Source: Flavobacteriales bacterium
GTDB lineage: Bacteria > Bacteroidota > Bacteroidia > Flavobacteriales_F > PHOS-HE28
Reading direction: 5' to 3'
Length of the DNA stretch: 64,000 nucleotides
NCBI GenBank assembly: GCA_044507815.1
Contig: JBIQIX010000004.1
Coordinates: 195,288-259,287 of the forward strand
Below are positions 8,135-54,759 of the stretch, piece by piece. The notes under the pieces were generated by a model. The model made no database searches. It had not been told where the DNA came from and saw only the letters and a list, made by a program, of their open reading frames with translations. A program made the translations under genes and the position numbers. Position 1 is the stretch's first letter; each line of letters begins with the position of its first letter.

Positions 8135-8229
8135 GGCACAAAGATGGAACGGTGGCCACAGCGCTGCGCGGTCCTTCCGGTGCACCCCAGGGCCTAATTT
8201 TGGCCGGATCTCCAACTCCCCGCTATACC

Positions 8230-13652: not shown

Positions 13653-16130
13653 TCAAGGTGATCCTTTCGCTTGGAACGGCACCTCCACGGTAATGCTGAT
13701 GTTGCGCCCCATGTTCTGGATGCCGCTCCGCCCCGTTGGATTGTCCGGGTAATTATCGAAATACTTCAAGCGGCTGAGGTTGTTTTGGTAAACCCGGTCG
13801 GCCAGGTTGGTGCCCAGCATGGTGAAGGTGAGCACAGTACGGCCCTTGCGGTCCACAATATCTCCGCCGATGCCCGCATCAAAAAGGTGATAGCCCGGCG
13901 TATATGTTTCCGTGCCGTAGGCCGCGAAGAATTTGCCTTGCGCCGCATGTACCTGCAGCCCGGCCTTGATGAAGAGATTGGCCACGGCACCGGCTTTTTT
14001 CTTCCACGTATAGCGCAATTCGCTGTACCCATGCAAGGGCGGGATCATGGGCAGGTACCGGACGCTGTCGGGCACGGTAGTGCCACCGGTACCGAGGTTG
14101 ACGGCCTGCACGTAGGAGATGGAATTGCCAAGATGCAGCCCTGGCAGCAGGTGCAGATCGATGTAGGCTTCGCCTCCGGCAAGCTGCGCCCTGGTCTGCC
14201 TGTACTGGAACACCGGTAGGGTCATGCCACCCGCGGAAAACAAGGAATCGCCGCCATGCATCGCGCCCAACTTTTCATTGTAGCTGTAGTTGTTGATCCG
14301 GTTGGTGAACAGTTCGATGCTGAAGGTGGCCTTGGTGCCGGTCATGTACGCGCCAACGTCGGCCTGGAGGTTCCTTTCCGGCTTCAGCGCGGCATTGCCC
14401 AACTGCATCAGTCCCTCGCCGGCATGCAGGCCGTTGGCGGTAAGCTCGGCCACGCCCGGGGCGCGGAAGCCATGGCCCAGATTGGCCTTCAGCGTAGTGG
14501 TGCTGCTCAGGTGCCAAGCTGCGCCCAAACTGGCCGCCGTGCCGGTGAAACGGGCGTCAAGCGCAGGAAAGACCTCATGTGCGTGGGCATGGCTTTGATC
14601 CACGGCCGCGGGAAATCCCTTGCCAGCATCTTCGACCTCAAACAGTTGCGCAGCGTGAAAATCCCGCGCATCCAACCGAAGGCCGCCCGATACATCCAGT
14701 GCGCCCCAGGTTTTCTTGGCGTGCAGGAACAGCCCGGCATCCAACAAATGATAACTGGGGATCAGGAATTCGGTGCCTTTCGTTGCCGTGTTGTTCTGGT
14801 ACATGCCGTTCAGCCCCCAGGTTGTTTCCCACCCCCCGCGATCGGGCAGGTTGTGCTTTATTCCATAGGTATAGGTATCGAGCACCAGGTACAACGCCGG
14901 GATGGAGCGGTGTTCCGGATAGTCGAATTCACGGCGCTCGCTTCTTTGGAGGCCGAGGTCCACGTTCAGCATTCCGTCGCCTGCCTTCACTCCGGCACTG
15001 GCCAAGGCATGGTAGCGTTGTATACGCTGGTGGGGTGTGCCGATGCGGTAGGAATTCAGGTCCGTGGCATCGGCTACCTCCCACTCCGCGCCTTCATCAT
15101 CCAATGGCTTCATGAATTTGCGCGAGGTGCTGTCGCGCATGCCGTCGGGCACTTCGAGCTGCTTATGGTGCGCGCCCATGCGCAACCTCGCGAAGCCCCA
15201 CGAGCCGTTCATGCCCAAGTAGGCGTTCATGTCCTGCTGCGCGTATTTGGTGCCAAGCACGCGTCCGTCCATGGCATTGCGGTAATTGGCGGCAACCTGG
15301 CCCGAAGCGCGCAGGCCGTACACCAGGTTATCCTTGTTGGCATCGAAGTGGGCCGATGAGGCCATTGCCTTGTTGTTGGTGTTGTAGGCAACCAGCGCAT
15401 GGCCGCGTTGCATGCCGGCTGGCACCGGGGGCGGTGGAAGCAGGTTCACCACACCGGCCAGGGCATCGGAACCATAGGAAAGACTGGCCGGGCCCTTGAT
15501 CACTTCCACGCGGTCGATCAGGAAGGGGTCGATCTCCACGCCATGCTCGGCTCCCCATTGCTGGTCCTCCAGCCGCACCCCGTCGAACAGGGTGAGCACA
15601 CGCGTTCCGCCAAGCCCCCTGATGTACGGCTTGGAGACACCGGGCCCTGAGCTGACCTCGCTTATCCCGGGCACTTTGGCCAAGGCCGAAACAATGTTCA
15701 GTGCAGCATTGGAGCGCAGAAAATCACGGTCCACAAGGGCCATTGGCACAGGCTGGCGGTGCTGCTCGGTTGCCCGTGCCGCTCCGGTCACCACAACTTC
15801 ATGCATTTCAAGCACCGTGGGTGTTAGCACGAAATCCCTGATCGGGGTGGAACCCAGGTCCACTGTTTCCACCAACGTCGTGTAACCTGTCATGCTTACG
15901 CGCACCAAGGCCTTGATGGTGGGCAGGTTGCCAAGGAGGAAGGTGCCGTCGTCCTTGGTTATCGTGCCGGTGTGCAATTCAGGGAAATACACGTGCGCTC
16001 CGGGAATGGGCAGCAGGGTGCCGTGCTCGCGCACGGTGCCCGAGAAAGTGGTGTGGGCGTTGGTATCCGCGGATATCGCCCATGTGGCCTGAAGGAATGT
16101 GAACAGTGTGATCAAACAGCGCTGTGGCAT
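13653..16130 (-). CDS. TonB-dependent receptor (plug plus beta-barrel) with an N-terminal carboxypeptidase-regulatory-like domain
   Basis: A CarbopepD_reg-like domain (FSGTVREHGTLLPIPGAHVYF) is followed by plug motifs (IRGLGGTRVLTLFDGVRLEDQQWGAEHG, DRVEVIKGPASLSYGSDALAGVVNL). Confidence 0.75.
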   Translation of the reverse strand: MPQRCLITLFTFLQATWAISADTNAHTTFSGTVREHGTLLPIPGAHVYFPELHTGTITKDDGTFLLGNLPTIKALVRVSMTGYTTLVETVDLGSTPIRDFVLTPTVLEMHEVVVTGAARATEQHRQPVPMALVDRDFLRSNAALNIVSALAKVPGISEVSSGPGVSKPYIRGLGGTRVLTLFDGVRLEDQQWGAEHGVEIDPFLIDRVEVIKGPASLSYGSDALAGVVNLLPPPPVPAGMQRGHALVAYNTNNKAMASSAHFDANKDNLVYGLRASGQVAANYRNAMDGRVLGTKYAQQDMNAYLGMNGSWGFARLRMGAHHKQLEVPDGMRDSTSRKFMKPLDDEGAEWEVADATDLNSYRIGTPHQRIQRYHALASAGVKAGDGMLNVDLGLQRSERREFDYPEHRSIPALYLVLDTYTYGIKHNLPDRGGWETTWGLNGMYQNNTATKGTEFLIPSYHLLDAGLFLHAKKTWGALDVSGGLRLDARDFHAAQLFEVEDAGKGFPAAVDQSHAHAHEVFPALDARFTGTAASLGAAWHLSSTTTLKANLGHGFRAPGVAELTANGLHAGEGLMQLGNAALKPERNLQADVGAYMTGTKATFSIELFTNRINNYSYNEKLGAMHGGDSLFSAGGMTLPVFQYRQTRAQLAGGEAYIDLHLLPGLHLGNSISYVQAVNLGTGGTTVPDSVRYLPMIPPLHGYSELRYTWKKKAGAVANLFIKAGLQVHAAQGKFFAAYGTETYTPGYHLFDAGIGGDIVDRKGRTVLTFTMLGTNLADRVYQNNLSRLKYFDNYPDNPTGRSGIQNMGRNISITVEVPFQAKGSP

Positions 16131-22470: not shown

Positions 22471-24270
22471 ATGAAGAACAACTACCAAGATCCATTGCAC
22501 GCCCGTTTGCTCGATGGCCTGCAATCGGCCTTTCAAGCGCTTTACGGGCAGGCCCCTGCGCCGGCGGCCATCCTATTCCAGCCCACCCGCGCCGAATTCG
22601 AGGGCGATGTAACGATCAATGTGTTTCCCTTCCTGAAACTGAGCGGGCAAGGGCCTGAGCAAACGGCCACTGCCGTGGGCGCGCATCTGAAGGCGGCCTT
22701 GCCGTTCGTGGAGAAGTTCAATGTGGTCAAGGGATTTCTGAATGTAGTGGTGGCCGATGCCTACTGGACGGAATTCCTTGGCATGGCCGTGGAGCGCGAC
22801 CTGCTCCAATTCCCTTCCACGGGGGAGCTGGTGATGGTGGAATATTCCTCGCCCAATACAAACAAGCCTTTGCATTTGGGCCACTTGCGCAACAACTTCC
22901 TGGGCCACGCAGTAAGCAGGATCCTGTCGGCCACGGGCAACGATGTGGTGCGTGTGCAGATCATCAACGACCGCGGCATCCACATCTGCAAAAGCATGGT
23001 GGCCTGGCTCCGGTACGGCGAAGGTGAGACCCCTGATAGCAGCGGTTTGAAAGGGGACAAGCTGGTGGGCAACTACTACGTGGCCTTCGATCGTGCCTAC
23101 AAGGAGCAGGTTGCCGCGGGCATGGCCGCCGGGCTCACGGAGGAAGAAGCCGGCAAACAAGCCCCCATTATGTGTGAGGCACAGGAAATGCTGCGCAAAT
23201 GGGAGGATGGCGACCCGGAAGTGCGGGCCCTATGGGAGCGGATGAACGGTTGGGTATACGCTGGTTTTGATGAGACCTATGCCGCCATGGGCGTGGAGTT
23301 CGATAAGCTGTACCATGAAAGCGAGACCTACCTGCTGGGGAGAAAAGACGTGCTGGACGGGCTGGAGCGGGGGATCTTTTTCCGCAAGGCCGACGGCTCC
23401 GTGTGGGTGGACCTGACAGCGGAGGGGCTGGATGAGAAGCTGCTGTTGCGCGGCGACGGCACCAGCGTGTACATCACGCAGGACGTGGGCACCGCGATCC
23501 AGCGGTTCAAGGAATTCCCCGCGCTCCGCCGCATGATCTATACGGTGGGCAACGAACAGGACTATCATTTCAAGGTGCTTTTTCTTGTGCTGAAAAAGCT
23601 GGGCTATCCCTGGGCGGATGAGTTGTACCACCTAAGCTATGGCATGGTGGACCTTCCCACCGGCAGGATGAAAAGCCGGGAAGGCACCGTGGTGGACGCC
23701 GACGACTTGATCGCGGAGGTTGTTTCCGATGCGGCAAAGGCGACCACGGCATTGGGCAAGCTCGAGGACCTCGATGAGACTGCGCGCAAGGAACTCTTCC
23801 GGATGATCGGCCTTGCCGCCTTGAAGTACTACCTGTTGAAGGTGGACCCGCGCAAACGCATGCTTTTCGACCCCCAGGCCAGCATTGACCTGCAGGGGCA
23901 CACGGGACCGTTCATTCAGTACACCTATGCACGCATCCAAAGTTTGCTGTGCAAGGCGGATCCAGGTGATACGGCGGCGGACGCGGGCACCGCGGGTGCT
24001 TGGCTGCCCGAGGAGCGCACCGTGGTCAAGCTGCTCCACCAATTGCCCGCCGTTCTGGCCGATACGGCCCAGCGGCTGGAACCCTCTGCATTGGCCAACC
24101 ACACATACGAATTGGTGAAGGCCTACAATTCATTCTACCAATCGGTGCCGGTACTGCGCGAGGAGGATGCAGCTAAACGGGCGCGGCGGCTGAAACTGGG
24201 CCGGGCTGTGGGACAGGCGGTCAAAAAGTCCATGTGGTGTTTGGGCATCGAGGTGCCCGAGCGCATGTAG
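22471..24270 (+). CDS. argS: Arginine--tRNA ligase
   Basis: Class I HIGH region (SSPNTNKPLHLGHLRNN), a KMSK-like region and a C-terminal anticodon-binding domain. Length 599 aa. Confidence 0.9.
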   Translation: MKNNYQDPLHARLLDGLQSAFQALYGQAPAPAAILFQPTRAEFEGDVTINVFPFLKLSGQGPEQTATAVGAHLKAALPFVEKFNVVKGFLNVVVADAYWTEFLGMAVERDLLQFPSTGELVMVEYSSPNTNKPLHLGHLRNNFLGHAVSRILSATGNDVVRVQIINDRGIHICKSMVAWLRYGEGETPDSSGLKGDKLVGNYYVAFDRAYKEQVAAGMAAGLTEEEAGKQAPIMCEAQEMLRKWEDGDPEVRALWERMNGWVYAGFDETYAAMGVEFDKLYHESETYLLGRKDVLDGLERGIFFRKADGSVWVDLTAEGLDEKLLLRGDGTSVYITQDVGTAIQRFKEFPALRRMIYTVGNEQDYHFKVLFLVLKKLGYPWADELYHLSYGMVDLPTGRMKSREGTVVDADDLIAEVVSDAAKATTALGKLEDLDETARKELFRMIGLAALKYYLLKVDPRKRMLFDPQASIDLQGHTGPFIQYTYARIQSLLCKADPGDTAADAGTAGAWLPEERTVVKLLHQLPAVLADTAQRLEPSALANHTYELVKAYNSFYQSVPVLREEDAAKRARRLKLGRAVGQAVKKSMWCLGIEVPERM

Positions 24271-24312: not shown

Positions 24313-25323
24313 TCAGAACTTCGGGCAGGGCACGGCGCGGTACTTCCGGTTCTTTCCGGTGCGCGGCCATTCATAGATCACGGAGATCTCATGGGCACCG
24401 CCGCTTTTCATCGTCAGCTTGCTCACCGTAACGTCATAGCTGTACACCAGCCGCAATTGGTAGGGTGTTTCATAGCCCATCATCAAGATCACGGCATCGT
24501 CGTTCGGGTAGCCGGGCTGGTATGCTTTCAGGCCGGGCAGGCCGCGGTACCAAAGCCCGAAGCTCACTTCGCGGTGGTCCACATAGCCGCCCAGGTCCAG
24601 CTGGTCCCATTTCTGTTGTGCCTTGTAGTGCGCGGCCAGCGTCATTTTGGTCTCGCTGTAGCGGAATGACCTTCCATCGAGCGGAAAGCGGTAGCCAGCG
24701 TGCACGCTGCTGCGGATCGGCAGTTGGGCGTCGCCATCCAGATAGATGCTTTGCTGGGGGCGGTTGATGTGGTTGGTGGAAAAGCCCGCCCAAAATTGCT
24801 CCGAGTAATAAAGAAAGCCGGCGGAGAAATCGAGGTAGGACACGTTCTGCATGCTGGGTGCCTCAATGCTCCTGGGCGCATTGTCGCGGATCACCTGGTC
24901 GGCGAACAGCATGTTGCCCTGGTCGAAGGTGCGGGAGGTGTAGGCCGCACGGATGCCGCCCCTAACCGCACGGCGCCGGTTGATGCGCGCCTCGTAGGAG
25001 TAATTGAGGGCCATTTGGGTGAAGGCCAGGTTGAAGGTGCCTGCCCGGTCATGCATCACCATGCCGCCGATGCCGCTGTTGATGTCGGCCGCCCGGTGGT
25101 CGTATGCAACGGCGTAGGTTTTGTAACCAGGTCCGATGCCTGGCCACTGAAGCCTGTAATTTATGCCGATCCGGTCCTGGTGCGTGTTGCCGGTAAGGGC
25201 CGGATTGAGGTACATCGGCGCTGCATACCATTGCGACAGTTGCGGGTCCTGGGCGGAAAGCCGTGCGGTTGCGATGGCCACCACCGCAAGAAGCGGAAGG
25301 ATGCGTGTCATGTTTCGGCTCAT
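24313..25323 (-). CDS. Type IX secretion system membrane protein of the PorP/SprF family (cognate partner of the upstream type-B C-terminal-domain adhesin)
   Basis: Signal peptide plus the family N-terminal signature (QDPQLSQWYAAPMYLNPALTGN…RIGINYRLQW) and a beta-barrel-like remainder. The start ATG (25321–25323) overlaps the adhesin stop codon as ATGA. An alternative start is at 25311. Confidence 0.75.
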   Translation of the reverse strand: MSRNMTRILPLLAVVAIATARLSAQDPQLSQWYAAPMYLNPALTGNTHQDRIGINYRLQWPGIGPGYKTYAVAYDHRAADINSGIGGMVMHDRAGTFNLAFTQMALNYSYEARINRRRAVRGGIRAAYTSRTFDQGNMLFADQVIRDNAPRSIEAPSMQNVSYLDFSAGFLYYSEQFWAGFSTNHINRPQQSIYLDGDAQLPIRSSVHAGYRFPLDGRSFRYSETKMTLAAHYKAQQKWDQLDLGGYVDHREVSFGLWYRGLPGLKAYQPGYPNDDAVILMMGYETPYQLRLVYSYDVTVSKLTMKSGGAHEISVIYEWPRTGKNRKYRAVPCPKF

Positions 25324-28300
25324 CGGAACAGGGTGAGGTCGCCGGTGCGCTGCATTTCCTTGTTGTCCACAAAGCGCACCCACACTTGATAGACATAAAC
25401 ATCCTGTTGGCTCAACTGGCCCCGGTAGTAGCCATCCCAGCCACGCCGGATATCGTCGCTTTCAAATACCAGTTCACCCCAGCGGTTGAAGATCCGCATG
25501 CGGAAATTCTTAACGAAGCGGATGAATGGATAGAACACATCGTTGCTCAGGTCGGAAGGGTCGTAAAACCCATTGCCGCCGCCGTTGGGGTTGGGGGTGA
25601 ACACGTTTGGTATGGTGATATCGTAGATCGGGTTTACCTTTACCGTGTGCCCGACATTCGCGGTGCATCCATGGTCATCGGTCACCGTAAGCCCCACTGT
25701 CCATACCCCGGGTTCTTCGAAATGGTGGTACGGGCTCGGATCCAGGCTCATGGCACCATCGCCGAAGCTCCATTGCCAACTGTTCACCGTGCCGGTGGAT
25801 TGGTCGATGAACTGGATGTTGGCATGGTCTGCATCGGTTTCCCATGGGTTGGCGGTGAATGCGGCCACTGGCGGGGCGAACGCGTGTACGGCGCCTGTGT
25901 TGGCCGCATTTGCCGAGCAGCCCAGCGGGGTGGTGACCGTAAGCGAGACGTTGTAATTGCCCGCCGTATAGGTGTGCACCGGTGACATCGAGGTGCTGGT
26001 GGCGCCGTTGCCGAAATTCCAGAAATAGCTCACGGGCTGGTTGGTAAGCCCTGTGGGGAAGTGTACCGTAAGCGGGGCGCAGCCTTGTGCGATCACCGGC
26101 GGAAGGGTAATGGTGGGCGGTGTTTCCACGGCGATGTTCACCGAGCGTTGGATGGTATTGGCGCAGATGTCGGTGGCCGTTACGGTCAATGAGCGGCTGG
26201 CCTGGGCAGTGATGTGGAACGGTCCGCTGCCGGTGGCCGGTATTTGCGGCCAGGACAGGGAGGTTTGGCCCGGGTAACCCGTTACCCATGCACCCACCGT
26301 GGCCGTGCCGCCAGGGCAGAAGGCGGTGTCGCCATATGTGTTCAAGGTGGCCAGTGCGAGGTTGAGCACGGTTACCGGAAGTTCCACGATGGGGCCATTG
26401 CACCCGTTCTGGTCCGTAACGCTAACGGTCACCACCTGCGTGGCGGGGAAGGAATATTGCAGGCTATCGCCCGTGCCGATGCCTGCCCATGTGATCTGGT
26501 AGTTCCCAGCGCCGCCGGCCGCCTGCGCCGTAAGCGGCACCGGCACGTTCACGCATACGGTATCCTCCACCTGCGCGGTCAGCAGCACCGGCGTTGGGTC
26601 GGGCAGTGTTACGGCGCCCTGCACCTGGCAACCGTGGCTGTCGGTGACCACCACGGTGTAAGCGCCGGCGGTAAGGCTGTACGCGGACGAGCCCGTTTGC
26701 GAATTGGTGTTGGCGCTCCACTGGTAGCTGTAGCCGGGTGTGCCGCCTGCAGGTTGGCCCATGGCCGAGCCATTGGCGCCACCATGGCATGAGGGCGCGT
26801 TGGGTTGAATGTTCACCGTAAGTGGTGCGGGTTCGGTGATCGTGGCGGTTGCCGTGGTGTCGCAGCCATGTTCATCGGTAACCAGCACGCTATATGTTCC
26901 TGCCGAGAGGCCCGTGGCCGTGGCGCTTTGTTGCCCTGCCGCATCGTTCCAGCTATAGGAGAAGCTGTTGTTGGCGGGCAGGAATGCGATTGCGCCTGAA
27001 CCATCGCCGTGGCAGGACAAATGTGTTGGCGTGATGCTGCTTCCAAAGAAGCTTGTGGGCAGCGTGATGTGCACGGTATCGGTGGCCGGAGGGCAGGTGG
27101 GGTTGCCCGTGGTGGTGAGCACCAGGCTCACACCGTTGGCCATGATCTCGGCCACCGTGGGCATGTAGGTCACATTGAGGCCGGTACCGGAGAATTGGCC
27201 ATTGCCTCCGCCCCATTGGCCGCTGGTGGCGTTGGTCACGGTCCCGTTCAGCTGCACGGGCAGGCTGCTGAAGCATCCGATGAGGTCAGCGCCCGCGTTG
27301 GCCGCGTTGGGCTGGCCCAAGGCCGTGATGGTTGCGGTGCCTTGTGCGGCCGCACAGTTGTTGGCGTCGGTAACAGTTAGGGTGTAGGTGCCGGCCGGGC
27401 CGTTCAGCGTGCTTCCCGTTTGCCCGTTGCTCCAGGCATACTGATAGGGCTGTGTTCCACCTGTGACGGTTGCCACAATGCTGCCATCGGCGTTGCCTGC
27501 GCATTGTTCATGGGTCACTTGCAGGGAGGCCACCGCCAATGCAGCGGGTTCGCTGATGGTGACGCTGAAGGTGGTGTCACAGCCGTAGGCATCGGTAACC
27601 AGCAGGTTGTGGTCCCCTGCGGGAAGCCCCGTTGCATTGGCCGTGCCTTGGCCGCTGGGCGTCCATTGGAAGGTCAACCCCGGGGTTGCTGGCGTAAAGG
27701 TGGCCGAACCGGTGGCTGTGCCGTTACAGGTGGCGTTGGTGTGTGAGACACTGCTTCCGAAGAAACTGGTGGGCAGCGTGATATGCACGGTATCGGTGGC
27801 CGGTGGGCAGGTGGGGTTGCCCGTGGTGGTGAGCACCAGGCTCACACCGTTGGCCATGATCTCGGCCACCGTGGGCATGTAGGTCACATTGAGGCCGGTA
27901 CCGGAGAATTGGCCATTGCCTCCGCCCCATTGGCCGCTGGTGGCGTTGGTCACGGTCCCGTTCAGCTGCACGGGCAGGCTGCTGAAGCATCCGATGAGGT
28001 CAGCGCCCGCGTTGGCCGCGTTGGGCTGGCCCAAGGCCGTAATGGTCGCACTGGCCTGGGCCGTGGTACAGTTGTTCGCATCGGTAACCGTTAGCGTGTA
28101 CGTACCTGCAGGGCCATGCAGGGTGGCGGTGGTTTGCCCGTTGCTCCAGCTATATGCATACGGTGGCGTGCCGCCGGTAACAATGGCGGTAATGGTGCCA
28201 TCGGCGTTCCCGGCGCATTGTTCGTCGGTCACCTGCAGGTTTGCGATGGCCAATGCGGCGGGTTGCGCTATGGTGGCTGTAAGGGTGGTGTCGCAGCCGG

Positions 28301-30137
28301 AGTTGTCGGTGACCAGTACGCTGTATGTGCCCGCTGGCAAGTCGGTGGCCGTGGCCGTGGTTTGGGCCGAAGGATCGTTCCATAGGAAGCCCAGCCCTGC
28401 CATAGTGGTGGTTACAGTAGCACTTCCGGTGGCTGAACCATTGCAAAGAAGGTCCGTTGCGCTGATGCTGCTTCCGGCGAAGCTGTTCGGCAGCGCGATG
28501 AACACGGTATCGGTGGCCACTCCGCATGGCGATTCACCGGTGGTGCTCAGCACCAAATGCAAACCGCCCGCGGCCACTTCACTTGGCGTGGGCATATAGC
28601 TCACATTCAGGCCTGTGCCGGACAAGGTGCCATCGCCCCCGCTCCAAATGCCGCCCGGGGCATTGGTTACCGAGCCGCTCAGTGCCACGGGCAAGGCGCC
28701 CATGCATCCTACCAGGTCCGGACCTGCGTTGGCCGTGCTGGGCTGGTTGGCCTCACCGATGGTAACGGCCAACGGCCCGGCAATGCAGCCGTTGCCGTCA
28801 GTGATCACCAAGGTGTAATTGCCAGCTGGCGCCGTGATCGAAGGGGTGGTGGCACCGGTGCTCCATTCATACTGGAACGGGGGCGTGCCCACGGTGATGT
28901 CCACGGTCGCACTGCCGTCCTGGTTGCCCGTGCACGACTCATCCACCACCGTGGGCGCGGCCGTCAGCAGCCCGGGCAGCACTTGCACCGAATACACATA
29001 GGTCTGCAGCGCGGGAATGGGGCATGCTCCATCATTTGCGGTGATGATGAATGGGAAGAAACCCGAAGCGCCGGGCGTGCCGGTCCAACAGACCCGAACG
29101 GTGAGCGGATTGGTGCCAACGGTGGTCAACGTGGCACCTGGCAGATTTTGTGCGAGGTTGGAGGTTACAGTGAGCACATCACCGGAGTTCGGGTCGCCGA
29201 TCACGGCATCGAAACAAAAATTCCCCGATTCGCAAATGCGGATGGCTCGGGGCCCCGTTTGCCATGCTTGGCCACTGAGGTTGCTCACCAGTCCCGTGGT
29301 GGGGTCGGGCGGGATGTTGGTGCAGGGGTAGGCAATGAACTGCATATCGCGCATGATCGATCCGATCCATACGCCATTGTGATCATAACGGTCCACCCGT
29401 ACAACCACCACCCAGTTGCCCACTTGGTTGAGCGTGAAGTTCACTTGTCCTGTGTGCGGGTCGAGGGTGATCCCCGTAATGGGCTCGGTGCCGGAAAATG
29501 GTGGCACATAGGGCAGGTCAACTGCGCCAACGTTACGCGCGTTGATGAAAGTGTAGGTCAATGAATCACCGGCCGGGTCGTAGGCCCCGTAGCTGTATGA
29601 GATGGGGTAGCCGGCACATACGTACGGGATGGCGGCGTTGGTGAAGCGCGGCGACTCCTGGCAAGGCCCATCGACGTTGTTGATGCGCGCCTCGGTGTAG
29701 ATGTTCTTATTGCCGGGGGTCACCAAGTTGGCAATGGCACCGTTGCGGTAGGTGTCCGTCCAAGAGATCGTCCAGTAATCGCAGGGGGGAAGGGTGACCA
29801 CGCCGGTATACACATATTCCTGCATGCCCGGCAATGATCCGTTGCTGTGGCAGGTGCTTTGGGCCATTTGGGCCTGGCAGAGCTGGGAGATTTCGGTGCC
29901 ACCGTTGGTGCTCACCGTAACGGAACGGTTGCCGCAAGGGCTCTGTACGCTGAGCGAGTATGAGTTGGAGAGGTTCTGCCCGGCGCAATCGCGGTACACC
30001 ATCATGGTGATCCGGTATTGGTTTCCGCCCAGGCATTCGTAGTAGATCTCGCCCCCGGCGATGTGCGTGGCCTTGGTGGTGGCGGCGGACAGCAATAGGA
30101 GAATGAGAAGCAGAAAGGCTGGTGATCTGCGTGGCAT
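25320..30137 (-). CDS. SprB-like giant cell-surface adhesin with a type-B T9SS/gliding-motility C-terminal domain
   Basis: There is a signal peptide (MPRRSPAFLLLILLLLSAATTKA). The body is built from many SprB-type repeats (C-x-G-x-x-DG-[ST]…VTGGT-x-PY-x-Y-x-WSNG). A PKD domain follows (WQWSFGDGAMS…GVWTVGLTVTDDHGC). The C-terminal domain matches the gliding-motility-associated type-B class (NVFTPNPNGGGNGFYDP…WGELVFES…GWDGYYRGQ…). The gene is immediately followed by a PorP/SprF gene. Confidence 0.8.
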   Translation of the reverse strand: MPRRSPAFLLLILLLLSAATTKATHIAGGEIYYECLGGNQYRITMMVYRDCAGQNLSNSYSLSVQSPCGNRSVTVSTNGGTEISQLCQAQMAQSTCHSNGSLPGMQEYVYTGVVTLPPCDYWTISWTDTYRNGAIANLVTPGNKNIYTEARINNVDGPCQESPRFTNAAIPYVCAGYPISYSYGAYDPAGDSLTYTFINARNVGAVDLPYVPPFSGTEPITGITLDPHTGQVNFTLNQVGNWVVVVRVDRYDHNGVWIGSIMRDMQFIAYPCTNIPPDPTTGLVSNLSGQAWQTGPRAIRICESGNFCFDAVIGDPNSGDVLTVTSNLAQNLPGATLTTVGTNPLTVRVCWTGTPGASGFFPFIITANDGACPIPALQTYVYSVQVLPGLLTAAPTVVDESCTGNQDGSATVDITVGTPPFQYEWSTGATTPSITAPAGNYTLVITDGNGCIAGPLAVTIGEANQPSTANAGPDLVGCMGALPVALSGSVTNAPGGIWSGGDGTLSGTGLNVSYMPTPSEVAAGGLHLVLSTTGESPCGVATDTVFIALPNSFAGSSISATDLLCNGSATGSATVTTTMAGLGFLWNDPSAQTTATATDLPAGTYSVLVTDNSGCDTTLTATIAQPAALAIANLQVTDEQCAGNADGTITAIVTGGTPPYAYSWSNGQTTATLHGPAGTYTLTVTDANNCTTAQASATITALGQPNAANAGADLIGCFSSLPVQLNGTVTNATSGQWGGGNGQFSGTGLNVTYMPTVAEIMANGVSLVLTTTGNPTCPPATDTVHITLPTSFFGSSVSHTNATCNGTATGSATFTPATPGLTFQWTPSGQGTANATGLPAGDHNLLVTDAYGCDTTFSVTISEPAALAVASLQVTHEQCAGNADGSIVATVTGGTQPYQYAWSNGQTGSTLNGPAGTYTLTVTDANNCAAAQGTATITALGQPNAANAGADLIGCFSSLPVQLNGTVTNATSGQWGGGNGQFSGTGLNVTYMPTVAEIMANGVSLVLTTTGNPTCPPATDTVHITLPTSFFGSSITPTHLSCHGDGSGAIAFLPANNSFSYSWNDAAGQQSATATGLSAGTYSVLVTDEHGCDTTATATITEPAPLTVNIQPNAPSCHGGANGSAMGQPAGGTPGYSYQWSANTNSQTGSSAYSLTAGAYTVVVTDSHGCQVQGAVTLPDPTPVLLTAQVEDTVCVNVPVPLTAQAAGGAGNYQITWAGIGTGDSLQYSFPATQVVTVSVTDQNGCNGPIVELPVTVLNLALATLNTYGDTAFCPGGTATVGAWVTGYPGQTSLSWPQIPATGSGPFHITAQASRSLTVTATDICANTIQRSVNIAVETPPTITLPPVIAQGCAPLTVHFPTGLTNQPVSYFWNFGNGATSTSMSPVHTYTAGNYNVSLTVTTPLGCSANAANTGAVHAFAPPVAAFTANPWETDADHANIQFIDQSTGTVNSWQWSFGDGAMSLDPSPYHHFEEPGVWTVGLTVTDDHGCTANVGHTVKVNPIYDITIPNVFTPNPNGGGNGFYDPSDLSNDVFYPFIRFVKNFRMRIFNRWGELVFESDDIRRGWDGYYRGQLSQQDVYVYQVWVRFVDNKEMQRTGDLTLFR
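26612..28753 (-). repeat. Intragenic tandem repeat array: three copies of a 714-bp (238-aa) unit inside the adhesin gene, with two copies sharing a perfectly identical 234-bp core
   Basis: The sequence at 27036–27345 matches 27750–28059 almost exactly, at an offset of 714 bp, and 27092–27325 versus 27806–28039 is identical. A more diverged third copy is recognisable at the protein level (GEANQPSTANAGPDLVGC… versus GQPNAANAGADLIGC…). The ORF track independently shows duplicated antisense peptides at 26968–27168 and 27607–27882. Confidence 0.75.
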
Positions 30138-30266: not shown

Positions 30267-31607
30267 ATGTTCGAGAACCTAAGCGACAAGTTGGAACGCG
30301 CCTTCAAGGTGCTGAAAGGCCAAGGCCAGATCACGGAGATCAACGTGGCCGAAACGATGAAGGAGGTGCGGCGCGCCCTGTTGGATGCCGACGTGAACTT
30401 CAAAACGGCCAAGGAGTTCACCGATCGGGTGAAGGCCAAGGCCCTGGGCCAGGATGTGCTTACCTCGGTAAGCCCGGGCCAATTGCTCATCAAGATCACC
30501 CACGACGAGCTGGCTGCCCTTATGGGTGGCACCAATGCGGGCATCAACCTTTCCGGCAACCCGACGGTGGTGCTCATGAGCGGCCTGCAGGGCTCGGGGA
30601 AAACCACGTTCAGCGGCAAGCTCGCCAACTTCCTGCGGAAAAAAGGGCGGCGCGTGCTGCTTACTGCGGCCGATGTGTACCGCCCCGCGGCCATCGACCA
30701 GTTGGAGACCTTGGGCAAACAGCTCGATATCAGCGTTTACAGCGAGCGGGACAACAAGGACCCCGTGGCCATTGCACGCAATGCCGTGGCCCATGCCAAG
30801 CAGCATGGCTTCACGGCCGTGATCATCGATACCGCCGGCCGTTTGGCGGTGGACGAGGCCATGATGCAGGAGATTACGGCCATTAAGAAGGCCATCAGCC
30901 CGCAGGAAACCCTGTTCGTGGTGGATGCCATGACCGGCCAGGACGCGGTGAACACCGCCAAGGCCTTCAATGACCGCCTGGATATCGATGGGGTGGTATT
31001 GACCAAGCTGGACGGCGATGCCCGCGGTGGTGCTGCCCTTACCATCCGCAGCGTGGTGGACAAGCCCATCAAGTTCATCGGCACCGGCGAAAAAATGGAG
31101 GCCCTCGACGAGTTCCATCCCGACCGGATGGCCGGGCGCATCCTGGGCATGGGCGACGTGGTCTCGCTGGTGGAGCGCGCGCAGGAACAATTCGACGAAA
31201 AGCAGGCCCGTGCCCTGCAGAAGAAGATCGCCAAAGATCAGTTCGGCTTCGACGACTTCCTGGAGCAGATCCAGCAGATCAAGAAAATGGGCAATATGAA
31301 GGACCTCATGGCCATGATCCCGGGTGTGGGAAAGGCCATGAAGAACCTCGACATTCCGGATGATGCCTTCAAGGGCATTGAGGCCATCATCAGCAGCATG
31401 ACCCCGCATGAGCGCCGTGAGCCCTCGGTGATCAACGGTAGCCGCCGCCAGCGCATCGCCTCTGGCAGCGGCACCAACGTGGCCGAGGTGAACAAACTGA
31501 TGAAGCAGTTCGAGGAAACCCGGAAGATGATGAAAATGATGGGCGACAAGAGCAAGATGAAGGCGATGATGCAGCGCATGCAGCAGATGCAGGGCATGAA
31601 CCGCTGA
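30267..31607 (+). CDS. ffh: Signal recognition particle protein Ffh
   Basis: N domain, then a G domain with the GTPase motifs (GLQGSGKTT, DTAGR, TKLDGDARGG), then a Met-rich M domain at the C-terminus. Confidence 0.9.
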   Translation: MFENLSDKLERAFKVLKGQGQITEINVAETMKEVRRALLDADVNFKTAKEFTDRVKAKALGQDVLTSVSPGQLLIKITHDELAALMGGTNAGINLSGNPTVVLMSGLQGSGKTTFSGKLANFLRKKGRRVLLTAADVYRPAAIDQLETLGKQLDISVYSERDNKDPVAIARNAVAHAKQHGFTAVIIDTAGRLAVDEAMMQEITAIKKAISPQETLFVVDAMTGQDAVNTAKAFNDRLDIDGVVLTKLDGDARGGAALTIRSVVDKPIKFIGTGEKMEALDEFHPDRMAGRILGMGDVVSLVERAQEQFDEKQARALQKKIAKDQFGFDDFLEQIQQIKKMGNMKDLMAMIPGVGKAMKNLDIPDDAFKGIEAIISSMTPHERREPSVINGSRRQRIASGSGTNVAEVNKLMKQFEETRKMMKMMGDKSKMKAMMQRMQQMQGMNR

Positions 31608-31656: not shown

Positions 31657-33516
31657 TTGATGCGCTTGGAATGCCTGTTCGGCGTCTTTCTTTCAATTGG
31701 TGCCATGGCCCAAACCGGGCCTGCCGGCATTGGCGGCCCGCCCAGTAATCCGCTGTGGCTGGATGCCGGCACCGGGGTATTCAAGGGTGCCGGAAGCAAC
31801 CCGGCCGGCAACGGCGATGCCGTGCAACAATGGAACAATGTTTCCGGCAATGCCAGGCATGCACAACAATCGACAGCGCCCAACAGGCCGCAATACAGGG
31901 CGAACGTGCTGAATGGCCGGCCCGCTGTGCGTTTCAATGCCTCAAGCGGCACGCGCATGGCCATCTCGGCGTTGAACAGCTCCACGGCCGGAAAGGCTTC
32001 CCTGTGGGCCGTGGTCAGCTATTCCAGCTTGCCCAGCCCCAACCCCGGCGTGTTGCAGGGCACCGCCCCGGGCAACGTGTATTCCAGCATTCCAGCCGAT
32101 AAGAACATCGGCCTGTGGGTGAGCAACGTGCACAAGGTGTGGGGCAGGGGAATCCAAACCGATGGCGCAAGCGTGAATGTGCCCGCGGTCACTTCACTCT
32201 CGGCCAATACGTTCTACATCCTCAGCACACAGTACGATGGTACGCGGATCAGCCAGTATGTGAACAACGCTTCGGCAGGTGTGGCCAGCTACAACGGAAC
32301 CCTGCGGCCATGGCCCGATATGTCGATCGGCACCCAGGCCGGTACGGAGGGTTGGAATGGCGACATCGCCGAGGTGGTGGCCTTCAACACGGTGCTGAAT
32401 GGCACGCAGCAATTGATCATGGCCAACTACCTGGCAGCCAAGTACGGCCTTTTGCTCGGTGCCGACGATATCTACACGCAGGATGATCTGGCCAACGGTA
32501 ACTACGACCACGAGGTGGCCGGGATCGGACGGATATCGGCAACCGATATGCATACCTCGGCCAAGGGAACCGGCATTGTGCAGATCGCCGGTGCCACGGC
32601 TTTGGATAACAACGAATTCTTGATCTGGGGCCACGATGGCGGCACATTGGGCTCTTGGGGAGCAGGAGAACGCCCTGCGGGGGTAATGGAACGGCTGGTG
32701 CGGACGTGGCGGGTGAACGAAGTGAACCGCTCCGGAAACCCGGTGGACGTGGGCGCCGTGGACATCACCTTCGACCTGTCCGGCCTGGGGCCGGTGGTGG
32801 CCGCCGATCTGCGCTTGCTTGTGGACAGCAACAACGACGGTGCCTTCGCCGATGAATCGCCACTGGCCGGTGCGGTGGCATTGGGCGGCGGGCAGTACCG
32901 TTTCAACGGCATCTCCGCCCTAAAGAACAACGTCCGGTTCACCCTGGGCTCGGCCAACCGGGTAACCACGCCACTGCCCGTGGAATTGCTCCATTTCGAG
33001 GCCATTCCGCAGGGCAGGGAGGTGAGGCTGGCCTGGGCCACCGCAAGCGAAAGCAACAATCGTTGGTTCACCGTGGAACGCTCAGGCGATGCACTTGACT
33101 GGGAAGCTGTGGCCACTTTGCAGGGAGCGGGCAACAGCACCCAACCCCTGGAATATTCAACGCGCGACCTTGCACCCTTGGCAGGCACCAGTTATTACCG
33201 CTTGCGCCAGACCGACCACGATGGAAGAACCACATTTTCCGAAGCGAGGCCCGTGGTGAGGGGCATGCCCGCTCCGGTCATCATTTACCCGAATCCCGCC
33301 CGCGGGCCTTTCTCGGTGATGCTTGATCCCATGGAAGAGGATGCCACGGTGGAGCTGGTCGATATGGATGGACGTGTGCTGTGGCAGCGTACCTCAGCAG
33401 GGGCGGGCACCCGTGTGCTTGTGGATATGGCGGAGCTGCCTGCCGCGATGTACATGGTCAGGATCGCATCAGGCCAACATTCCCGCGCAGGAAGGTTGGT
33501 TGTTCCGGCCCATTGA
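31657..33516 (+). CDS. Secreted protein with a LamG/concanavalin-like domain and a type-A T9SS C-terminal sorting domain
   Basis: Signal peptide (MMRLECLFGVFLSIGAMAQ); LamG-like motif (GWNGDIAEVVAFNTVLN); a C-terminal domain with IIYPNPARGPFSVML…VELVDMDGRVL…YMVRI. Confidence 0.6.
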   Translation: MMRLECLFGVFLSIGAMAQTGPAGIGGPPSNPLWLDAGTGVFKGAGSNPAGNGDAVQQWNNVSGNARHAQQSTAPNRPQYRANVLNGRPAVRFNASSGTRMAISALNSSTAGKASLWAVVSYSSLPSPNPGVLQGTAPGNVYSSIPADKNIGLWVSNVHKVWGRGIQTDGASVNVPAVTSLSANTFYILSTQYDGTRISQYVNNASAGVASYNGTLRPWPDMSIGTQAGTEGWNGDIAEVVAFNTVLNGTQQLIMANYLAAKYGLLLGADDIYTQDDLANGNYDHEVAGIGRISATDMHTSAKGTGIVQIAGATALDNNEFLIWGHDGGTLGSWGAGERPAGVMERLVRTWRVNEVNRSGNPVDVGAVDITFDLSGLGPVVAADLRLLVDSNNDGAFADESPLAGAVALGGGQYRFNGISALKNNVRFTLGSANRVTTPLPVELLHFEAIPQGREVRLAWATASESNNRWFTVERSGDALDWEAVATLQGAGNSTQPLEYSTRDLAPLAGTSYYRLRQTDHDGRTTFSEARPVVRGMPAPVIIYPNPARGPFSVMLDPMEEDATVELVDMDGRVLWQRTSAGAGTRVLVDMAELPAAMYMVRIASGQHSRAGRLVVPAH

Positions 33517-35265: not shown

Positions 35266-36849
35266 ATGCGATTTCCAGTGATGCTGCTTGGGGCAGCACT
35301 AATGGCCACAACCTCTGTGGCCGCCCAAAAGAAAACAAACAAGGCCACCGTGAATTGGGGCCCCGACCTTACCGAAAAGGAGAACGGTTCATTCGATGAA
35401 GTGGTCGGCGATAACGGAACATCCACCTTCCTGCTCGTGGACCGCAAGAAGGGCAAGTTCATACAGCGGATGGACGGGCTGAAAATGGCGTGGGAAAAAC
35501 CGCTTGAGCTGAAGATGGACAAAAAGGACATGCGCCTTGAACGGATCATGCTCACGGATGCCGAGATCCATGTGTTCACCAGTTTGTACGACAAAAAGCA
35601 GAACGAAAACCGGCTGTACGTTTCAAGCTATGACCAACAAGGCTTTGCACCGGGTAGGCAATTCCAGTTGCTGGCAACCATGCACGCAGAGAAGCAGTCG
35701 AATGCGGGCACATTTTTCATGCAGCTTTCGCCCGGCAAGGGCAAGATCCTGGTGAATGCCACACCGCCGTATGATAAGAAGTCCACGGAGCGTACCACTA
35801 TGCATATGTTCAGTTCAGACCTGCAGCTGCTATGGTCCCAGGAATTCAAGCTGCCATACACCGATGAGGAATTCAAGATGGAGAGCTGGCGTGTGGATGA
35901 TGACGGCGCCGTGGTGCTCCTCGGCGTGAAGTATGCGTCGAAGCAGGAACGGAGGGAACTCAAGCGTGCCAACCAGGCCACTTACGAATATCATTTGCTG
36001 GTGTACGACGGTGCTTCCGCACAACCTTCGGACAACCTGATATCCGTACCGGATAAATTCCTGCAGGACATGACCATTTCCATGGGTGCCACAGGCGACA
36101 TTTTATGCGGAGGCCTTTACGGGAACAAAGGCAGCTTCAGCGTGCGCGGGGCCTACTATCTGCGGTTGGACCGCAACTCCAAGCAGGTCGTGCACGCGAG
36201 TTATAAGGAATTCTCGGATGACTTCATCACTTCCTACATGGAGGAAAAAGCCGCTGCCAAGGCGAAGAAAAAGGCCGATAAAAAGGGGGAGGAGCTTGAG
36301 CTTCCGGAATTCCAGCTGAACGATATCATCCTCCGCGACGATGGCGGGGCCGTGTTGCTGGCCGAGCAGTACATCGTGCGGGAGGTGACCACCACCTACA
36401 CCTCCAACGGCCAAACGTACACCACCACGAGCACGCACTACTATTACAACGACCTGTTGGTGATCAACATTGACCCAAGCGGCGACATACAGTGGGCGAT
36501 AAAGATCCCCAAGCGCCAACACAGCGTGAACGATCAAGGACGTTTCAGCGGGGTGGCGGTGAACGTGAAGCAAGACAAGATCTACTTCGTGTTCAACGAT
36601 ACCGGTGAAAACCTCTTCCTCAAGCCGGGCGACAAGGTGAAGCAATTCGCGCTCACCGGAAAAGATGCACTGGTGGTGCTGGCCACCGTGGATGCCAACG
36701 GGACGGTAAGCCGCGAGGCCCTGTTCTCACCCGATCGGCGTGACGTGATCCTTCGCCCCAAGGATTGTGTGGAGCTGGAGGACGAAAGCATGTTCATATA
36801 CGCCAACCGTAAAAAGGATTACCGGTACGGGCTGATCACCTTCAAGTGA
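35266..36849 (+). CDS. Hypothetical secreted protein (527 aa, Lys/Glu-rich), no recognisable domain
   Basis: Signal peptide (MRFPVMLLGAALMATTSVAAQ) and a clean long ORF. The local GC content (about 52–55%) is lower than the ~62% background. Confidence 0.5.
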   Translation: MRFPVMLLGAALMATTSVAAQKKTNKATVNWGPDLTEKENGSFDEVVGDNGTSTFLLVDRKKGKFIQRMDGLKMAWEKPLELKMDKKDMRLERIMLTDAEIHVFTSLYDKKQNENRLYVSSYDQQGFAPGRQFQLLATMHAEKQSNAGTFFMQLSPGKGKILVNATPPYDKKSTERTTMHMFSSDLQLLWSQEFKLPYTDEEFKMESWRVDDDGAVVLLGVKYASKQERRELKRANQATYEYHLLVYDGASAQPSDNLISVPDKFLQDMTISMGATGDILCGGLYGNKGSFSVRGAYYLRLDRNSKQVVHASYKEFSDDFITSYMEEKAAAKAKKKADKKGEELELPEFQLNDIILRDDGGAVLLAEQYIVREVTTTYTSNGQTYTTTSTHYYYNDLLVINIDPSGDIQWAIKIPKRQHSVNDQGRFSGVAVNVKQDKIYFVFNDTGENLFLKPGDKVKQFALTGKDALVVLATVDANGTVSREALFSPDRRDVILRPKDCVELEDESMFIYANRKKDYRYGLITFK

Positions 36850-40320: not shown

Positions 40321-41226
40321 ATGCACTCGAAGATCATACTGATAGGCGCGCTTGCGCTGCTGGTGGCCTGTGGCGGCGCGGACGCGCCTGAGGCCGCCAC
40401 CAAGGAACACCTGGTGATCGGTGGCGACGATGCCTCCGACCATGCGGGCAACTACTATCAAATGCCCACACCCAACGAGCTGTTCCAATTGGTGCGCACC
40501 ATGAGCAGCGACGGGCAAAAGCAGATGATGAGCCCTGCGCGCAACGTGGACCGCTATGCCACCACGGCGAAAAAGGCCTTGAACTTCGGTGTGTACGCCA
40601 CCGACCTGGTATACGCCAGCAATTATAAGATCACCAGCGAGGTGGTGCGCTACTACCTCACCTGCAAAAAGCTCGGGGAGCAACTGGGCCTGGCGGGTTC
40701 CTTCACCGATAAGGACTTCAGCCGCTTGGAGCGGAACCTTACCCGGGGGGATTCCCTTGATGTGATCAGCAACGACGCGTACGAGCGGGCCTACCGCCGC
40801 ATGCAGGATGATGACATGGGCCCTACGCTCGCGCTCGTATTGGCCGGTGGCTGGGTGGAAAGCATGCACCTGGTCACCCGGCAAGTGCTGCATGTGGATC
40901 CGCAGGATCCCTTGGTGCAGCGGGTGGCCGAGCAGAAAGTGAGCTTGGACCATCTGATGGAACTGATGGCCCAGTATTCCGGTTCGCCCCAGGTGGACAG
41001 TGTGCGCAACGAGCTGTCGAAGCTTCGCGACATCTATGACACCTTCCCTGTGGTACGCGGCGAACACCCCCAAAAATCCCCCAGCGGAAGGCAAATCCTC
41101 GGCGACGACATCACCATTGTGATCACCACGGACGGGTTCAACCAACTCACCAAACGGGTTGAGGCGTTGCGGGAAAGCATCATCCTTCCGGAAGACATCA
41201 TTTCATCTGCCCCAAACCTGAATTAG
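40321..41226 (+). CDS. Hypothetical lipoprotein
   Basis: Lipobox (ALLVACGG); no recognisable domain. First gene of a plus-strand run of five tightly spaced genes. Confidence 0.5.
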   Translation: MHSKIILIGALALLVACGGADAPEAATKEHLVIGGDDASDHAGNYYQMPTPNELFQLVRTMSSDGQKQMMSPARNVDRYATTAKKALNFGVYATDLVYASNYKITSEVVRYYLTCKKLGEQLGLAGSFTDKDFSRLERNLTRGDSLDVISNDAYERAYRRMQDDDMGPTLALVLAGGWVESMHLVTRQVLHVDPQDPLVQRVAEQKVSLDHLMELMAQYSGSPQVDSVRNELSKLRDIYDTFPVVRGEHPQKSPSGRQILGDDITIVITTDGFNQLTKRVEALRESIILPEDIISSAPNLN

Positions 41227-41229
41227 ACC

Positions 41230-41793
41230 ATGCCCCTGCGATCGATCTTGACCACCACCGTGGCGGCCCTCGCTCTTGGAGTGATGGCGCAAAGCGAGTG
41301 TTCTGAATTCTGGAAATCCGCACCACGTGCCACCGATGCCCGGTTCACCGTGAACGGGCAAAGCCGGGCCGCCAGTGTACAAGTGGGCGCACCGACCGAA
41401 CTGAACATCATCATCTACAAAGGCCAGGATTACCGCATCTCATTCGTGTGGGATGAAAAGATCCTTGGCGATGAGGTGGTGGCCCGCATCATTGAAAAAG
41501 TGCGGGGACCCAAAAAGAAAAGCAGTGCCCAGGGCATGGCCATGAAAGGCACGCAAGGCCAGGAAAAAGCCGAATACGAGGATGTGCGGAAAGTGATCTG
41601 GGACAACCAGGACCATGAAATGGCAAACTCGGTTGAATTCTCGGCCACCTCCACCAAGCGGATCGCCATTGAGGTGATCGCCCCGGGTGCACTGGAGAAC
41701 CCGAAGGACGTGAAAAAGGGCCGTGTGGCGCCGGACATTGGCTGCTTGGGTATTTTGATCGAGCACATGCCCACACCCACGATCGGTTTCTGA
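41230..41793 (+). CDS. Hypothetical secreted protein
   Basis: Signal peptide (MPLRSILTTTVAALALGVMAQ); starts 3 nt after the previous gene. No recognisable domain. Confidence 0.45.
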   Translation: MPLRSILTTTVAALALGVMAQSECSEFWKSAPRATDARFTVNGQSRAASVQVGAPTELNIIIYKGQDYRISFVWDEKILGDEVVARIIEKVRGPKKKSSAQGMAMKGTQGQEKAEYEDVRKVIWDNQDHEMANSVEFSATSTKRIAIEVIAPGALENPKDVKKGRVAPDIGCLGILIEHMPTPTIGF

Positions 41794-42853: not shown

Positions 42854-43377
42854 ATCGCATCTTGGCATTGGTAATTCCTGTGGCTGTGGTGGCCTGCGGC
42901 GGAAATAACCCCGCACCGCCGGCCGTGGTGGGGCATCGTTCGGATGCACCCGACCAAACGCTGATCGAGCAAAACAAGCGGATGGCCCAGCGCGAAGAGG
43001 CGGACATACAAGACTGGCTCAAGCGGCAGGGTGGGGCCATGATCGCCACGGGCACCGGCCTGCGTTACAAGCTGCTGCGCGACGTGCCCGGCGACACGGC
43101 AAGGCCAGGCCAGGTGGCCGTGCTCACCTATACGGCACTGTTGCTTAACGGCGATACGGCGTATGCATCCGCCCCAGGGGAAACGGCCTCTTTCCGTATA
43201 GCGCACAGCGCGGTGGAAAGCGGCCTGCAGGAAGGCGTACAGCATTTGAGCGTGGGCGACAGCGCGGTGCTGGTGATACCCAGTGCCTTGGCATTCGGCC
43301 TGATCGGTGACCTGGACAAGATACCCATGCGCAGTACCGTGGTGTACCACATTGGCCTGGTGGGCCTGGAGGATTGA
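42850..43377 (+). CDS. FKBP-type peptidyl-prolyl cis-trans isomerase lipoprotein (GldI-like size and architecture)
   Basis: Lipobox (AVVACGG) plus an FKBP domain (VAVLTYTALLLNGDTAYAS…FRI…GLQEGVQHLSVGDSAVLVIPSALAFG). The ATG overlaps the nrnA stop as ATGA. Confidence 0.7.
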   Translation: MNRILALVIPVAVVACGGNNPAPPAVVGHRSDAPDQTLIEQNKRMAQREEADIQDWLKRQGGAMIATGTGLRYKLLRDVPGDTARPGQVAVLTYTALLLNGDTAYASAPGETASFRIAHSAVESGLQEGVQHLSVGDSAVLVIPSALAFGLIGDLDKIPMRSTVVYHIGLVGLED

Positions 43378-49873: not shown

Positions 49874-49969
49874 GCACGGGTGGGCGCAAGGGCAGCCCGG
49901 GATTAAGAAGGAAGGACTTGGGAAAAGGGGACGCCAACAGGCATTGCCGGGCGCGCGGGCGCTATGCAC

Positions 49970-54605: not shown

Positions 54606-54759
54606 AGATCCTCCAATCCACTTGCCCATCCCGTTTGTTGGAAGCTGCGCATTTCGTCTACCTTTTAACGCGAAATGGTAACATGCCTGCCCATGGGCGG
54701 AACAACAGGTTGGGCATGAACGCCATACACCGCTACATTTGCCGCCCCATTGATCGAAC

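Follow-up and report, generated by a model that had tools for sequence, protein, structure and literature searches.

A type-B T9SS adhesin gene and an abutting PorP/SprF-family carrier gene are conserved as a pair in an uncultured Flavobacteriales lineage

A type-B substrate gene abuts a PorP/SprF-family gene

We analyzed 64,000 nucleotides of a Flavobacteriales bacterium genome (assembly GCA_044507815.1, contig JBIQIX010000004.1, positions 195,288 to 259,287; hereafter the window), and find two abutting minus-strand open reading frames (ORFs) that very probably constitute a two-gene operon, encoding a type IX secretion system (T9SS) substrate of type B, here a predicted adhesin, and its cognate PorP/SprF-family carrier. 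This reading follows from hidden Markov model (HMM) matches, a 14-strand barrel model of the carrier, strict co-conservation of the two genes, duplication of the pair as a unit, and published experiments on the family. An earlier interpretation made from the letters alone (the sequence-only reading) had proposed a SprB/SprF-type module of cargo and dedicated outer-membrane adaptor. The same evidence supports a T9SS cargo with a dedicated PorP/SprF adaptor; against SprF itself stands the lack of a Cys-x-Cys motif in the carrier and of sprC and sprD at the locus. In the literature, such a two-gene arrangement is already the norm for type-B substrates (Gorasia 2022, PMC9143113; Paillat 2025, PMC12618676). 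The pair, as read from the ORFs of the window, comprises the following features:

25320..30137, minus strand: adhesin gene, T9SS type-B substrate, 1605 aa (ORF, translation, and Pfam SprB/PKD/CHU_C and TIGR04131 matches)
24313..25323, minus strand: PorP/SprF-family carrier gene, 336 aa (PF11751, TIGR03519, AlphaFold2 model, Foldseek)
25320..25323, minus strand: ATGA overlap of the adhesin stop TGA and the carrier start ATG (read directly in the sequence)

The adhesin gene runs from its ATG at 30137-30135 to its TGA at 25322-25320, and the carrier gene from its ATG at 25323-25321 to its stop at 24315-24313. Four bases, ATGA, are thus common to both genes and are visible in ...TTCCGATGAGCC..., which confirms the strand and the stop/start overlap described in the sequence-only reading. 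The carrier has a second in-frame ATG 12 nt downstream of the overlapping one; a relative whose carrier is 94% identical (L004) has the overlapping ATG only, and the start that yields 336 aa is also the one used by public gene calls on three contigs of 1.3-2.6 kb, found by exact-sequence look-up.

The 4-nt ATGA is the commonest gene overlap in bacteria, and the overlap is therefore unremarkable by itself. What exceeds chance is that a tight junction, from -4 to +8 nt, has been retained in about 27 species; the ATGA overlap is present in about 16 of 27 related loci, and a spacer of 2-8 nt in the remainder. Such a junction fits stoichiometric production of substrate and shuttle, and we infer translational coupling of the two genes from their spacing.

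Family, predicted fold, and C-terminal tail of the carrier

The carrier matches PF11751 with 216.5 bits (cut-off 22.3) and TIGR03519 with 238.7 bits (cut-off 90.55), the latter over model positions 4-291 of 292. Judged by these profiles, the downstream protein is unambiguously a member of the PorP/SprF family. It begins with a signal peptide (aa 1-24, ...ARLSA / QDPQLSQWY), and its AlphaFold2 (AF2) model, built with 35 homologues, contains 14 beta-strands and, after them, an unstructured tail (aa 320-336), at moderate confidence (pLDDT 73.7, pTM 0.72). Foldseek matches of this model (TMq 0.48-0.57) include OmpG and FadL, themselves barrels of 14 strands, and chain F of 6h3i, a Type 9 translocon entry (TMq 0.57), and the predicted barrel resembles FadL, OmpG, and PorV; a sequence search of the PDB with the carrier returned no match. 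PorV and PorP-like proteins have been described as FadL-family barrels with 14 strands (PMC9143113), in agreement with the model.

The carrier ends in a short tail:

24316..24366, minus strand: carrier periplasmic C-terminal tail, aa 320-336, basic, ending in VPCPKF (translation)

The protein terminates in ...KYRAVPCPKF, and Cys333 (codon 24325-24327) is its sole cysteine. All complete orthologues among 28 related loci end in (V/I)PCPKF, the sole exception, L024, being disrupted in its reading frame, and the same ending closes 120 of 120 close homologues. These homologues came from a search with the carrier that returned orthologues of at least 61% identity only, with no SprF or other Flavobacterium johnsoniae paralogues among them. 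In a wider set of 149 distant PorP/SprF representatives (P0161-P0309; 33-46% identity to the carrier, and 68% for two fragments), a cysteine stands within the last 20 residues of 132, and the tails mostly read xPC[PA]KF-COOH, preceded by a stretch rich in lysine and arginine. A Cys-x-Cys motif is absent from the carrier, from the complete orthologues in the 28 loci, and from both homologue sets (120 close, 149 distant). Tails of PorP-family members other than SprF are not discussed in the paper that reported the disulfide between SprF and GldK (PMC12635249).

Domain organization of the adhesin

The adhesin was expected from the sequence-only reading to combine SprB repeats, a PKD domain, and a C-terminal domain (CTD) of type B. 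The repeats and the CTD were borne out, and the PKD domains number two, not one. All three HMM checks named at the outset (TIGR04131, the PorP/SprF model, and the SprB repeat) gave matches, TIGR04131 at borderline score. The label "giant" was generous for a protein of 1605 aa, given the 669 kDa of SprB. Its parts are as follows:

30069..30137, minus strand: Sec signal peptide, aa 1-23, MPRRSPAFLLLILLLLSAATTKA / THIAGGE (by inspection of the translation; same pattern in orthologues)
28953..30068, minus strand: conserved region at the N-terminus, aa 24 to about 395, with about three immunoglobulin (Ig)/cadherin-like beta-sandwich domains predicted
26583..28934, minus strand: stalk, aa 402 to about 1185, seven SprB-type repeats and three ~95-aa Ig-like modules (motif map, DNA repeats, Pfam SprB)
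25638..26072, minus strand: two PKD domains, aa 1356-1412 and 1421-1500 (PF00801 and PF18911)
25323..25619, minus strand: type-B C-terminal sorting domain, aa 1507-1605, ending in ...DLTLFR (PF13585, TIGR04131)

No Pfam family matches aa 24 to about 395. The AF2 model of this region is confident and all-beta (pLDDT 92, pTM 0.88), and its fold matches include glycoside hydrolases that bear PKD and Ig-like modules. The model therefore suggests about three beta-sandwich domains without an enzyme fold, likely the distal binding end of the protein. Homologues of the region are restricted to Flavobacteriales and Bacteroidota metagenome proteins, in which it is joined to SprB repeats or straight to type-B or type-A sorting domains. 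Specifically, five homologues of aa 24-401 (P0020, P0023, P0026, P0030, and P0037) carry the three-domain block in proteins of about 480-630 aa without an SprB stalk, their sorting domain being either type-B (PF13585) or type-A (PF18962). Because the block occurs fused to either sorting domain without a stalk, this "head" is a portable module, usable with either T9SS signal.

The stalk is made of three super-repeats of ~238 aa, in which the Ig-like modules (~95 aa, n = 3, motif AxAGxD...C...G.W.GG.G) are interleaved with the SprB-type repeats (Pfam SprB, 136.7 bits). At the DNA level this appears as direct-repeat families spaced 714/717 nt, the two youngest copies being 93% identical over 300 nt; Tandem Repeats Finder reports nothing in the gene, as a period of ~715 nt exceeds its 500-nt limit. 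Toward the C-terminus, the super-repeats are followed by two more Ig-like segments, the two PKD domains (PKD_4, 87.3 bits; PKD, 40.4 bits), and the CTD. Pfam detects no catalytic or carbohydrate-binding family in the adhesin.

The CTD matches CHU_C (PF13585) with 40.1 bits against a cut-off of 27, over aa 1507-1597. Its match to TIGR04131 is borderline, with 33.4 bits for the full adhesin and 35.0 bits for the last 145 aa against a cut-off of 35, and the C-termini of nine orthologues reach 29.7-34.5 bits, with E values of about 1e-7 to 1e-8. The type-B CTD of the whole clade is therefore slightly divergent, though clearly homologous. Five conserved motifs, A-E, have been defined for the last 100 aa of type-B substrates (Paillat 2025, PMC12618676). 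The terminal DLTLFR is kept in nearly all orthologues, with few single substitutions.

Conservation of the locus

The pair is bounded on both sides by housekeeping genes:

22471..24270, plus strand: argS, convergent neighbor and downstream bound, 42 bp away (Pfam tRNA-synt_1d and DALR; synteny in relatives)
30267..31607, plus strand: ffh (SRP54), divergent neighbor and upstream bound, intergenic distance 129 bp (Pfam SRP54; start read from the sequence)

Since argS converges on the pair from 42 bp away and ffh diverges from it at 129 bp, the adhesin and carrier genes form an isolated two-gene unit. No PorE-like gene lies between the carrier and argS, or is linked to the pair in the loci of related genomes. 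There is likewise no sprC or sprD at the locus, where the upstream neighbor is the divergent ffh. A scan for sigma-70 promoters and terminators gave no signal above shuffled controls, and such a scan is uninformative for Bacteroidota promoters.

Scanning one genome per species, we found 28 related loci with a carrier identity of 63-94%, all from metagenome-assembled genomes, either of uncultured Flavobacteriales or labelled Cryomorphaceae or Bacteroidota. The pair keeps its place in about 27 Flavobacteriales genomes: the order ffh / adhesin -> carrier <- argS is preserved wherever the contig is long enough, with an insertion of about 1 kb ahead of argS at a few loci. Orthologous adhesins that are complete measure about 1365, 1604, or 1841 aa, and these three length classes differ by steps of ~239 aa, as expected if one ~238-aa super-repeat were gained or lost. 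Identity among relatives is 49-81% in the N-terminal region and 41-68% in the stalk.

In one relative (L014, 2916-10996) the whole adhesin-carrier module is present as a tandem duplicate, in the order CTD, PorP, second adhesin, second PorP. Taken together, the conserved order and junction, the length classes, and this duplication of the pair show that adhesin and carrier genes evolve together, as a single unit. In another relative (L022), a second CTD-bearing gene (14431-14745) is located downstream of the carrier, at a distance of about 3.4 kb. We also considered horizontal acquisition of the locus, which is unlikely given a uniform GC content of about 0.61 and conserved synteny.

Proposed mechanism and closest known systems

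According to the proposed mechanism, drawn throughout by homology, Sec would take the 1605-aa protein across the inner membrane, and the type-B CTD would then steer the adhesin to the T9SS translocon. The 14-stranded PorP-like barrel, supplied in matched amounts by the abutting downstream gene, would collect the adhesin from the translocon, and the adhesin would remain attached to the barrel as its outer-membrane anchor. In the predicted shape, SprB, Ig-like, and PKD modules make up a stalk that extends the conserved N-terminal block of three beta-sandwich domains, the probable binding end, from the cell.

This mechanism is modeled on what has been reported for the family. Type-B substrates are not handled by PorV, and require a cognate PorP/SprF-like protein that is usually encoded directly downstream (PMC12618676, PMC9143113, PMC12635249). 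The substrate is thought to be produced in stoichiometry with its shuttle and to stay bound to the shuttle at the surface (PMC12618676, PMC9143113). There are also "orphan" type-B substrates without a downstream porP/sprF-like gene. At the present locus, co-conservation and duplication as a unit point indirectly to a pairing of the type-B CTD with the carrier barrel.

Among known systems, the SprB-SprF pair of F. johnsoniae, whose genes are reportedly in one operon with sprC and sprD (sprCDBF), resembles the locus in several respects. In both, a type-B CTD protein with SprB repeats is directly followed by a PorP/SprF-family gene, a porE-like neighbor is missing, and the carrier's periplasmic C-terminal tail bears a cysteine beside a proline. 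By contrast, the adhesin is far from the 669 kDa of SprB (PMC9143113), a divergent ffh takes the upstream place where sprC and sprD would be, and the carrier tail ...VPCPKF has one cysteine where SprF has ...N-C324-P-C326-T.... On the strength of these three differences (no sprC/sprD, no Cys-x-Cys, and 1605 aa against 669 kDa), the locus is not a SprB/SprF orthologue.

Three other systems offer partial parallels. Fjoh_4750 of F. johnsoniae and its shuttle, which we liken to the pair by genomic pattern, represent a smaller type-B substrate with no PorE-like gene in the operon, and Fjoh_4750 moves helically (PMC12618676). In Fjoh_3952-Fjoh_3951-Fjoh_3950, a type-B substrate is likewise followed by a cognate PorP-like gene, and the shuttle Fjoh_3951 is needed for secretion; unlike the two-gene operon described here, that system has a PorE-like third gene and its substrate forms static foci (PMC12618676). 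PG1035-PorP-PorE of Porphyromonas gingivalis also has a type-B CTD protein held at the surface by a PorP barrel (PMC9143113), but P. gingivalis is non-gliding, its single PorP also associates with PorK/N and PorE, and PG1035 is non-essential with an architecture that is not adhesin-like.

Mobile or static, and other readings of the pair

The pair may serve motility or adhesion, the carrier having no SprF Cys-x-Cys and the operon no sprC or sprD. We lean toward a mobile adhesin coupled to the GldK-containing track over one fixed to the wall, as there is no linked PorE-like anchor and the single tail cysteine is invariant. The published mobile substrates (SprB, Fjoh_4750, Fjoh_1123) have no porE-like linkage, and the static Fjoh_3952-3951 pair is followed by a porE-like gene (PMC9143113, PMC12618676). 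F. johnsoniae has ten PorP-like proteins, of which SprF, the Fjoh_4750 shuttle, and Fjoh_1677 are known as mobile and Fjoh_3951 as static. In addition, the periplasmic tail of SprF contains Cys324-x-Cys326, of which Cys326 forms a disulfide with Cys343 of GldK (Liu 2025, PMC12635249). This disulfide is needed for sustained movement along the track and is dispensable for carrier function (PMC12635249). The SprF tail reads ...QSISN-C-P-C-TQSPV..., as deduced from mutagenic primers in the supplement of the same paper. Since a single tail cysteine suffices in PorG of P. gingivalis (PMC12635249), the one in the carrier might, by analogy, still function.

Close behind this lean ranks the same pair as a static adhesin, a quite possible case in which the proteins would be fixed to peptidoglycan through an unlinked PorE-like bridge or sit immobile in the outer membrane. 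Some type-B substrates indeed do not go to the gliding machinery (Paillat 2025, PMC12618676), the features that separate the pair from SprB-SprF (no Cys-x-Cys in the carrier, no sprC/sprD at the locus) are what such an adhesin could show, and the window encodes, at 107-2044, a protein with a PorE-like half of TPR and beta-propeller. However, the static case on record has its porE-like gene within the operon, while argS directly follows the carrier here and in nearly all relatives, and no peptidoglycan-binding OmpA domain is detectable in the PorE-like protein encoded at a distance. A static adhesin would also leave the invariant periplasmic tail cysteine without a role.

Several points weigh against a mobile T9SS cargo and carrier pair. 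The lineage is known from metagenome assemblies alone, and the window adhesin and its nine orthologues score at or just under the TIGR04131 cut-off of 35 (29.7-35.0). The Cys-x-Cys of SprF is missing, and the alignment register between N-C-P-C-T of SprF and V-P-C-P-K-F of the carrier is ambiguous. A tail cysteine is, moreover, common in distant PorP-family members, and may not separate mobile from static carriers. Lastly, the PorE-like gene, at a distance of 22 kb, could act in trans. A more specific form of the mobile adhesin is doubtful, though still worth stating: Cys333 would form a disulfide with the conserved cysteine of GldK/PorK as Cys326 of SprF does, and an uncultured, high-GC clade of Flavobacteriales without sprCDBF would have this small adhesin as its principal gliding adhesin driven along the track.

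Two readings depart further from an adhesin with its own carrier. The upstream protein could be a substrate-capture or structural coat protein, for instance one that binds polysaccharides or particles for feeding, with the SprB, PKD, and Ig-like modules as generic spacers. The sequence allows no inference of a ligand, and PKD and Ig-like modules also occur in the glycoside hydrolases among the fold matches, but the lack of any detected catalytic or carbohydrate-binding family, and the fact that the type-B substrates characterized to date are known or predicted adhesins (PMC12618676), make this unlikely; in practice, such a protein would differ from an "adhesin" only by its ligand. Least probable in our view is a general T9SS component, the carrier being the core PorP of the lineage and the adhesin a PG1035-like accessory or cap. 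The pair is conserved, syntenic, and mostly single-copy between housekeeping genes across the clade, as a core component might be, and in P. gingivalis the type-B protein PG1035 is bound by PorP, which also associates with PorK/N (PMC9143113). Yet no coupled gene pair has been described for PorP and PG1035 in that species, whereas the cargo gene is always directly upstream here, duplication of the pair as a unit is the behavior of cognate partners, and the well-conserved N-terminal region of the adhesin argues for a function of its own.

Other T9SS-related and neighboring genes in the window

The sequence-only reading had also cited other genes of the window as T9SS context. Its two type-A CTD cargo proteins are real: the products of 7903-9891 and 31657-33516 match PF18962 with 27.9 and 36.8 bits, and TIGR04183 with 26.5 and 36.3 bits, respectively, and their presence indicates that the organism uses the T9SS.

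The "PorE-like OmpA protein" stood in part. The 645-aa product of 107-2044 (plus strand) scores 160.3 bits against NF052230, whose cut-off of 600 is not reached, over model positions 6-407 of 648. PorE combines TPR, beta-propeller, CRD, and OmpA_C-like domains; here the match to PorE, and to the OmpA-like protein of CHU_0125 type, covers the first ~410 residues, with TPR and a PD40 propeller. The C-terminal ~230 residues gave no OmpA match, with Pfam returning nothing beyond TPR and PD40 even at E values up to 0.1 and the PDB returning neither PorE nor OmpA; this half contains a degenerate OmpA-like ...NKNLSLRRIASLV... motif. The "GldI-like" lipoprotein encoded at 42850-43377 (plus strand) has an FKBP_C domain, a lipobox-like ...VVAC, and an end-to-end alignment to TIGR03516 (2-174 of 177), but its 70.6 bits fall far below the cut-off of 157.6. 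As such, the supporting T9SS context is real, yet weaker than had been stated.

The FKBP gene is the first of two tandem genes for FKBP-type peptidyl-prolyl isomerases; the second, at 43402-44292 (plus strand), encodes an N-terminal extension of ~180 aa without a family match. Further along, 45545-49969 (minus strand) is a single ORF of 1474 aa in which a full CzcA/AcrB-type RND pump (ACR_tran, aa 37-1062, 922 bits) is fused to a TolC-like outer-membrane factor (OEP), with an HlyD-family gene downstream at 44339-45532 (minus strand). Past the last transmembrane helix of its RND part, the fusion continues with a basic stretch and a segment resembling a signal peptide, ...VFMRRKRKQKRDSPGGAPIMVLALAITAAVPASAQA / PVLPLD, which suggests that the outer-membrane part is threaded out and possibly cleaved off. 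An assembly artifact was rejected as the source of this ORF, as many Bacteroidota proteins with PF00873 and PF02321 span the junction.

Several ORFs of 187-527 aa in the window have no Pfam match, namely 35266-36849, 40321-41226, and 41230-41793 on the plus strand, and 50611-51837 and 53622-54863 on the minus strand. NCBIfam likewise gave no match for 35266-36849, 40321-41226, 50611-51837, and 41230-41793. Given the GC content of 61%, some of these may be spurious, and others may be lineage-specific proteins.

Significance

With this analysis, a conserved locus in a widespread uncultured Flavobacteriales lineage gains its correct functional label, that of a type-B surface adhesin with a dedicated carrier, and no new biology is claimed. 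The pair is a core syntenic locus of the lineage and not a variable accessory gene, and the length of its stalk varies by whole cassettes of ~238 aa.

The tail of the carrier is the one thread with wider reach, given the disulfide-track model of 2025. As 132 of 149 distant representatives have a tail cysteine, covalent tethering to the track or hub could be a general trait of the PorP/SprF family, beyond the Cys-x-Cys of SprF. Following the 2025 finding of the SprF-GldK disulfide, the invariant single cysteine of the PCPKF ending would offer a cheap and testable predictor of PorP-like carriers that are hooked to the track.

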